Positions 21,773-23,278 of a stretch of 64,000 nucleotides of DNA are shown one piece after another. Below the pieces are notes generated by a model. The model had not been told where the DNA came from. It made no database searches and was given only the letters and a program-made list of their open reading frames with translations. This DNA is from Escherichia coli (GTDB lineage Bacteria; Pseudomonadota; Gammaproteobacteria; Enterobacterales; Enterobacteriaceae), in the NCBI RefSeq assembly GCF_041248615.1, contig NZ_CP158426.1, one strand, 5' to 3'. The number at the start of each line of letters is the position of its first letter. The first letter of the stretch is position 1. A program made the translations under genes and the position numbers.

Positions 21773-23278
21773 TCATGGCATGGCCATGAGCATTTTCACG
21801 TCCGCATCACCGTCTGCTGACGTCTGTGGCACGCCACCCTGTACCGCTGCCGGTGAATGGTTCGCCATGAAATGTTCAAACATGGCGGTTGTGGATGCAG
21901 AGACCGGTTCTGCTTTACCTGACCCCGCAGCCAGCACAGCCCGGGCGTTCTCCACGGTCATTCCCGGGCAGGCAGCCAGCTGTTCAGCCTGCGCCTCAGC
22001 CCCTTTTGCCTCATCCAGGGCCATGATCTGATCACGGAGTGATGGTCCGGCATCCGCCTGCGGTGAAGCTGCCAGGATCGGGCGGGCTTTTTCCACCGTC
22101 ATCTCCGGCATCGCCGCCAGCGTTGCCGCCAGTTGTTCACGACCTTTCGCCTCTTCACACGCCATAATGCGATCGGCTTCACTCTGCGCGGATGCCACCG
22201 GCTGCTGTGGTGCCGCCGCGGCCAGGATCTCCCGGGCCTGTTCAACGCTCATGCCCTGTTGTCCCGCCAGCATCGTGGCAAGCTGTTCACGTCCTTTCGC
22301 TTCCTTACTCGTCAGGATCCCCATCACTCGCTGGTTCTCCTGCGCGGCGGCTTCCGTTGCAGTTAATTGCGGCATAGTGCCTCCTGTATCATGTGTGTAC
22401 AGCGCCGTGGTCATCACACTGATGGCATCCGACGCATTGACTAATTCATCCGCCAGCCCGGCCTCAATGCCGGACTGACCTTCAAAAACGGCGGCCTCTG
22501 TTCCCGTGACCACATCCACAGACAGCCCGGTATACATCGCCACTTTTTCGGCAAACATCCGGTGTGCCGCATCAATGCGCTGCTGCATGTCCTGACGCAC
22601 CTCTTCCGGTAAGGCTTCAAACTGATTGCCATCCACCTTGTGCGCCCCGGCATAAATCAGCGTGATATCCACACCGGCCTGCGCCAGATGACCGGCATAG
22701 CTGAGATGGCTCATCATCACGCCAATGGAGCCGATACGGGATGTCTGGGTAACCAGCCGTCGGGAGCAGGCCGACGCCAGCAGCATGGCTGCAGAACAGG
22801 CCGTGTCATTGCACAGTGCCCAGACCGGCTTCTGCTGACGGAGGCGGTAAATCATGTCAGCGCAGTCAAACGCGCCTGCGGCCTGCCCGCCCGGACTGTC
22901 AATGTCCAGCAGTACGCCCCGGACAGCGGTGTCCGCCATTGCCTGCTGAAGACAGGCGACAATGCCGTCATAGCCTGTCATTCCGGAAAATGGCCGCATA
23001 CCACCCAGCCGGTGCACCAGCATGCCGGTCACCGGCAGTACAGCAATACCGTTCACCACCCGGTAAACACGGGCCGGTCGTTTACCTCCGGCCATGTACT
23101 CGTCCGTTTCAGCCAGCATTCCGGGAGCATCAAGCTGTACCTGCTGTTGTGGTACCGAAAGACTTGCTGCCCCCATCTCGCGCCCGAGCGCGCAAAAGAA
23201 AACCCGCGCATAGGCGGGCTCCAGAAGCAGCGGTTCATTGAATGCTGCGGCAATAATGTGTGAAAGATTACGTCTCAC
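21773..23278 (-). CDS. C: capsid maturation protease / scaffold (gpC with nested Nu3-like C-terminal region)
   Basis: N-terminal S49/ClpP-like region like lambda gpC; C-terminal part has three about 35-aa repeats. Confidence 0.85.
   Translation of the reverse strand: MRRNLSHIIAAAFNEPLLLEPAYARVFFCALGREMGAASLSVPQQQVQLDAPGMLAETDEYMAGGKRPARVYRVVNGIAVLPVTGMLVHRLGGMRPFSGMTGYDGIVACLQQAMADTAVRGVLLDIDSPGGQAAGAFDCADMIYRLRQQKPVWALCNDTACSAAMLLASACSRRLVTQTSRIGSIGVMMSHLSYAGHLAQAGVDITLIYAGAHKVDGNQFEALPEEVRQDMQQRIDAAHRMFAEKVAMYTGLSVDVVTGTEAAVFEGQSGIEAGLADELVNASDAISVMTTALYTHDTGGTMPQLTATEAAAQENQRVMGILTSKEAKGREQLATMLAGQQGMSVEQAREILAAAAPQQPVASAQSEADRIMACEEAKGREQLAATLAAMPEMTVEKARPILAASPQADAGPSLRDQIMALDEAKGAEAQAEQLAACPGMTVENARAVLAAGSGKAEPVSASTTAMFEHFMANHSPAAVQGGVPQTSADGDADVKMLMAMP

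Follow-up and report, generated by a model that had tools for sequence, protein, structure and literature searches.

How a lambdoid head protease/scaffold gene comes to carry three copies of one short protein unit, and what three copies might do for a scaffold whose lambda counterpart has one, is the question raised by this locus. It lies in a window of 64,000 nucleotides (the whole stretch of DNA that was analysed) from the Escherichia coli contig NZ_CP158426.1. The answer proposed here is that the feature is very probably an old internal triplication of a conserved three-helix scaffold module in a gene of the phage-21 gp5/gp6 type, matching the repeat regions annotated in phage 21 as Tri boxes. 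The triple repeat is already known, its annotation in GenBank being as old as the record of the phage 21 head operon, and the additions made here are modest, i.e., (i) the age of the triplication, (ii) its restriction to a clade, (iii) the range of its copy number, and (iv) a confident predicted fold for the module.

The gene stands in a run of head genes that reads, in the direction of transcription, portal, protease/scaffold, decoration and capsid, an order with which the RefSeq annotation concurs:

23268..24860, minus strand: portal gene (530 aa), upstream of the protease/scaffold gene
21773..23278, minus strand: head protease/scaffold gene of the lambda gpC / phage 21 gp5 type (501 aa, GTG start), from the open reading frame list, Pfam and the match to phage 21
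22406..22843, minus strand: S49 (SppA-like) peptidase domain of that gene (aa 146-291), from Pfam Peptidase_S49
21389..21736, minus strand: gpD-like decoration gene (115 aa), downstream of the protease/scaffold gene
20303..21331, minus strand: gpE-like major capsid gene (342 aa), downstream of the protease/scaffold gene

Assignment of the 501-aa gene, whose product RefSeq names S49 family peptidase (WP_001253937.1), as a gpC-type S49 protease/scaffold gene is supported by matches to both a family model and solved structures. Pfam PF01343 (Peptidase_S49) covers aa 146-291 with E = 6e-36 and 124 bits against a cut-off of 24.9, and in a PDB sequence search SppA proteases (3rst, 4kwb), the sole solved relatives by sequence, match aa 77-289 at E = 1e-15; the NCBIfam SppA_dom match falls below its cut-off. 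Ser162 is aligned with the serine of the SppA 'AASGG' motif.

The chromosome of E. coli NRZ14408 (NZ_LT599825.1) has an identical copy of window positions 1773-43278, within a lambdoid prophage. There, the GTG start of the protease/scaffold gene and the end of the portal gene share 11 nt (23268-23278), as they do in phage 21, an overlap that suggests translational coupling. Elsewhere in the prophage, the gene for an IS256-like IS1414 transposase (window about 6771-8667) splits the J-like tail gene, whose flanking pieces carry the annotations partial DUF3672 protein and phage tail protein. With its J-like gene interrupted in this way, the prophage is probably unable to make infective particles.

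As in lambda, the C-terminal part of the long gene would be expressed a second time from a predicted internal start. The features concerned are as follows:

21773..22375, minus strand: predicted nested in-frame scaffold gene, equivalent to lambda Nu3 and phage 21 gp6 (200 aa; ATG at 22375..22373, i.e., M302)
22380..22385, minus strand: Shine-Dalgarno AGGAGG of the nested scaffold gene, read from the sequence and annotated as the ribosome binding site of gene 6 in both phage 21 records
21776..21922, minus strand: C-terminal tail (aa 453-501), from alignments

A start at the M302-equivalent position is annotated for gene 6 in both phage 21 records (M81255.1 and OL657228.1), the same position is the annotated gene 6 start in phi80, and the GG(T/R)M context of the start is common to lambda, phi80 and Gifsy-1 in our alignment. 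Initiation at M302 would give a 200-aa putative scaffold protein made up of three modules and the tail. PHROGs assigned to this part of the protein belong to head maturation protease and head scaffolding families, with phrog_8399 (head scaffolding protein) matching in three separate stretches. A weak match to the portal family phrog_21 was also seen. The tail is built around a conserved F-x-x-F-M...H-S-P helix and an L-L/M-x-M/I-P end, an outline shared with lambda (…DLLNTPV); helices are predicted at positions 160-173 and 191-196 of the 200-aa protein, with low confidence. Conservation of the tail is intermediate, with top-residue frequencies of 0.42-0.60 against 0.75-0.84 for the repeated units.

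Within these C-terminal 200 aa lie three copies of a unit of ~37-48 aa, the cores of which are placed as follows:

22214..22321, minus strand: unit 1 core (aa 320-355, GILTSKEAKGREQLATMLAGQQGMSVEQAREILAAA), counterpart of the phage 21 'Tri1 box' (22205..22308 when mapped onto the window)
22064..22171, minus strand: unit 2 core (aa 370-405, RIMACEEAKGREQLAATLAAMPEMTVEKARPILAAS), counterpart of the phage 21 'Tri box' (22058..22168 when mapped onto the window)
21923..22030, minus strand: unit 3 core (aa 417-452, QIMALDEAKGAEAQAEQLAACPGMTVENARAVLAAG), counterpart of the phage 21 'Tri3 box' (21914..22027 when mapped onto the window)

The first-pass annotation of this DNA had reported three tandem repeats in the 501-aa gene, and this is borne out: pairwise local alignments of the units score 80-102 with BLOSUM62, against a mean of ~27 (sd 5) for composition-preserving shuffles used as the control, i.e., z = 10.6-14.6. 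Its placing of the repeats in the scaffold (Nu3-like) part of gpC likewise holds, all three being downstream of M302, inside the Nu3-equivalent part, and the S49 domain ending at aa 291. The dimensions that it gave need adjustment. Its length of 35 aa fits the conserved core; the period, set by EAKG anchors at aa 326, 376 and 423, is 50 and then 47 aa. Its range of 21975-22335 covers units 1 and 2 but cuts unit 3, which reaches to about 21923 and of which only the first half is included. The first helix of unit 1, moreover, extends upstream to about aa 307 (window about 22360).

The repeat is real, diverged, and conserved as protein and not as DNA. Between copies, the 36-aa cores are 50-61% identical in protein and 58-67% identical in DNA, and at about half of the positions where two copies have the same residue the codons differ (10/21, 10/18 and 13/22 in the three comparisons). 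Tandem Repeats Finder, run on the DNA, reports no array over the units, because the copies are too diverged; the repeat is thus visible at the protein level only. Among orthologs, the units have top-residue frequencies of 0.75-0.84 against 0.43-0.54 for the linkers, unit 1 being the best conserved (0.84 vs 0.75 for units 2 and 3), and core positions are kept in all three units across orthologs of 48-65% identity. The linkers between modules are poorly conserved, are modelled with low confidence, and are rich in Pro, Gln, Ala and Ser.

This architecture is that of phage 21. Its gp5 is 95% identical to the product described here, without gaps and likewise at 501 aa, and it has the same internal start, ribosome binding site, gene order and repeat positions; the differences lie in only ~5% of residues and in the setting, which here is a chromosomal prophage of E. 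coli NRZ14408 with IS1414 in its tail gene. The older record (M81255.1, an 8-kb head operon) annotates gene 5 (head-tail preconnector gp5) and, nested in it, gene 6 together with a separate ribosome binding site; within gene 6 it marks three repeat regions, the 'Tri1 box', the 'Tri box' and the 'Tri3 box', described there as 'function unknown; putative'. In the newer complete genome (OL657228.1), the products bear the names capsid protease/scaffolding protein and scaffolding protein, given for their similarity to lambda C and Nu3. When tested by alignment, the three units and the Tri boxes align without gaps and their coordinates overlap; since the boxes mapped onto the window coincide with the units, the Tri boxes are the three units. 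The original description of the phage 21 genes is reportedly that of Smith and Feiss (1993, Gene 126:1).

Each module is predicted to fold by itself as a small three-helix bundle. A single unit, modelled by AlphaFold2 as a 60-aa query from an 89-sequence alignment, gave a bundle of three helices (residues 6-21, 30-37 and 44-53) at pLDDT 90.8 and pTM 0.74. Modelled whole from a 16-sequence alignment, the 200-aa protein showed, three times over, a similar group of three short helices (pLDDT 75-84), with the linkers and most of the tail at 44-66; at a pTM of only 0.29, no packing between units is predicted. Foldseek found no PDB match with E <= 0.001 for the 200-aa model, a negative that carries no weight at a pTM of 0.29. 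In searches of Pfam, NCBIfam and PDB sequences, neither the unit nor the 200-aa scaffold part was covered by a model or a structure. The unit would thus be a widespread, apparently self-folding three-helix module without a curated family (Pfam/NCBIfam) or a solved structure.

The gene itself is an ordinary and common E. coli prophage gene. It was matched in 2031 of 5426 complete E. coli genomes (more than one third), and near-full-length matches in 1865 of these, together with those in many phage genomes, show that the array is no sequencing artefact. Fragments of near-identical E. coli genes made up most of the matches in a homologue search with the 200-aa part, from which copy-number variants were also picked out. 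To follow the unit further afield, a 48-position profile of it was scored against 1.84 billion cluster representatives (clusters at 50% identity), giving 2872 proteins at E <= 0.001 and 605 at E <= 1e-10; the matches carrying the unit are of two sorts, namely proteins of 120-200 aa and S49 proteins of ~415-505 aa, in which the unit belongs to the C-terminal part. Four distant Casjensviridae phages (of Pseudomonas, Proteus, Rhodobacter and Klebsiella) each have one clear unit. The unit was also met in unusually long chains, namely P0109 (535 aa), P0111 (582 aa) and P0113 (844 aa), the last with one unit at aa 758-805; the weak phrog_21 match hints that fusions of portal, protease and scaffold may exist.

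Across this wider set a single unit is the rule. Re-scanning of 151 proteins (150 listed matches of the 2872, plus the four-unit protein P0033) gave one unit in 132, two in 13, three in five and four in one. The two-unit proteins fall in clearly different lineages (in one, the linker reads PPTPPTPPTPP), so duplication has happened more than once. Among 80 related viral loci, which supplied 73 full-length genes (>380 aa), 51 genes have one unit, 19 have three and three have four, and here unit number follows the clade of the head module: beside all three- and four-unit genes, identity to the window counterpart is at least 81% for the capsid protein and at least 73% for the portal, whereas beside one-unit genes it is 54-68% for the capsid protein (31% in one distant locus) and 52-68% for the portal (61-67% in nearly all). 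The position of unit 1 differs along with its company, since it starts at aa 308-313 in multi-unit proteins and at aa 323-362, after a longer linker, in one-unit proteins.

As for age, the best match for unit 1 of the window protein is the unit 1 of other phages (70-76% identity) and that for its unit 2 is the unit 2 of Gifsy-1 (81%), while both are only 57-59% identical to their own paralogs. Being nearer to orthologs than to paralogs, these units place the triplication before the split of the 21-like and Gifsy-like lineages. The four-unit relatives (538 aa, including P0033) are of another kind; with 77-93% DNA identity among units 2-4, they look like the outcome of a more recent expansion or of gene conversion, whereas the triplication here is old. 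Reduced forms also circulate, among them one with an in-register fusion of units 1 and 2 and one without unit 2, with two units left. A 482-aa variant (WP_001253887.1, in the complete E. coli genome NZ_CP082827.1) lacks 19 aa of unit 2 through an in-frame deletion between two 'LAA' triplets, and the cluster that matches it (P0012) holds 53 member sequences.

What the three units do is approached most readily by asking what else they could be. That they reflect chance similarity in low-complexity, Ala-rich sequence, or an error of assembly, is supported by no tool result and has a vanishingly small probability, even though the region is indeed rich in Ala, Gln and Glu, given that z stands at 10-15 against shuffles of the same composition and that the same architecture recurs in the 1865 complete genomes and in independently sequenced phages, with units that are orthologous from phage to phage; on these three grounds chance and artefact are refuted. 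A role at the level of DNA or RNA, as protein-binding boxes, recombination sites or an antisense promoter, has somewhat more to recommend it and is still very improbable. GenBank does annotate the boxes as nucleotide 'repeat_region' features, and this part of the gene holds two antisense matches to the CII-box pattern TTGYN6TTGY, at 22123 and 22357. Yet the copies share only 58-67% of their DNA, use different codons for about half of their identical residues and form no Tandem Repeats Finder array, and what conservation tracks is amino-acid positions and a confidently predicted fold. The CII-like matches, only one of which lies inside a unit, stem from similar QL(A/T)A(A/T)T codons and are probably by-products of coding. 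A function of the boxes as DNA is therefore rejected on the codon evidence. For the record, the two matches occupy 22123-22136 and 22357-22370 of the plus strand, the same places are annotated as CII sites in the phage 21 genome OL657228.1, and the whole window has 13 matches to the pattern on both strands, against roughly 8 expected.

With the units taken as protein, the mechanism that we put forward, as a tentative reading to which we give somewhat less than even chances, is one of multivalent interaction modules on flexible linkers. The long product comprises the S49 protease, then three modules on flexible linkers, then the tail, and the modules would be the interaction elements of an otherwise flexible scaffold. 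Common to protease and scaffold, they would draw both into the assembling procapsid together with portal and capsid protein, as in lambda gpC, Nu3, gpB and gpE. Three modules per chain would afford a built-in multivalency, replacing the single module, long disordered linker and self-association of lambda, and the protease would then degrade the scaffold prior to DNA packaging. The lack of contacts between units in the AlphaFold2 model argues weakly against self-association via the units. A different division of labour, which we regard as unlikely, would have units 2 and 3 serve mainly as spacers in place of the lambda-type linker, with specific contacts left to one unit (probably unit 1) and to the C-terminal tail. 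The longer linker of one-unit proteins (unit start at aa 323-362 vs 308-313), a copy number that ranges from 1 to 4, the circulation of variants with unit 2 deleted or truncated, and the better conservation of unit 1 (0.84 vs 0.75) all fit such spacers; a pure spacer, however, would be expected to decay to linker-like sequence, whereas units 2 and 3 are much better conserved than the real linkers and, even in orthologs only 48-65% identical, retain every core residue (I, EA-G-E, LA..LA, M-T/S, A..L). To return to multivalent modules, the variants with a truncated unit 2 or with two units, which are prophage copies read from sequence, would argue against a strict need for three intact units. 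Also on the opposing side, lambda and phage 21 are both functional, with one and three units, respectively, and the capsid proteins are of similar length despite this difference (342 aa here, with lambda-type copies aligning over 341 aa). It is conceivable, if still rather unlikely, that a copy number of 1, 2, 3 or 4 acts as a tuning knob, turned by in-register recombination and setting the valency of the scaffold for capsid protein or portal; were this true, phage 21 would have in its chain of three units a substitute for the self-association that lambda, with its one-unit Nu3, relies on.

The wider value of the locus, a modest one, lies in the repeated unit as the conserved, foldable core of lambda-type scaffolding proteins, with a putative role in binding. 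Natural variants with one, two, three and four units, together with the sharp difference between lambda and phage 21, form a ready-made series for studies on scaffold valency, linker length and procapsid assembly.

Lambda Nu3 is needed for portal incorporation into the procapsid and is reported to interact with itself and with C, B and E (PMC3224144); it is called an intrinsically disordered assembly catalyst in the title of Medina et al. (2011), as given in a paper that cites it. Our alignment of six gpC-type proteins (lambda-type, phi80, phage 21, D2, Gifsy-1 and the window protein), a comparison with gpC/Nu3 homologs that the first-pass annotation had proposed as a check, places three units in the phage 21, D2, Gifsy-1 and window proteins and one in the lambda-type and phi80 proteins. 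Lambda gpC, 52% identical to the window protein over aa 3-408, has the S49 domain, a nested in-frame scaffold start at GG(T/R)M, one homologous unit (IMGILNCEEAHGREEQARVLAETPGMTVETARRILAAAP) and a similar C-terminal end. It differs in length (439 aa in the lambda-type protein), in unit number and in an extra ~45-aa linker, rich in Ser, Thr, Ala and Gln, before its unit. The capsid and portal proteins that accompany it share only 54-68% and 61-67% identity, respectively, with those of the window. The window product is accordingly longer than lambda gpC, as had been claimed from the first reading; its statement that the repeats extend the C-terminus needs correction, since the two extra units sit not at the terminus but between unit 1 and the conserved C-terminal tail, and the net gain is only 62 aa because the lambda linker is missing here. 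After its unit, the lambda-type protein continues with 'TALDRLMQG', which is similar to the start of a unit (DRIMA…), and then runs straight into the tail; judging from this likeness, the stretch may be the remnant of a lost second unit.

The gp5/gp6 pair of phi80 (447 aa, one unit) resembles lambda in having a ~45-aa linker before its unit that the 21-type is without. Nearer to the window protein is STM2605 of the Salmonella prophage Gifsy-1, a prohead protease and lambda gpC homolog with three units in the same order, of which units 1 and 2 are orthologous to those of the window (70% and 81% identity, respectively); it differs in its overall identity of 63%, its length of 498 aa and its C-terminal end. 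Beyond phages, the predicted arrangement calls to mind, as a structural analogy only, the domains of staphylococcal protein A, the streptococcal GA albumin-binding modules and UBA domains, in which three-helix bundles likewise serve as tandem binding modules.
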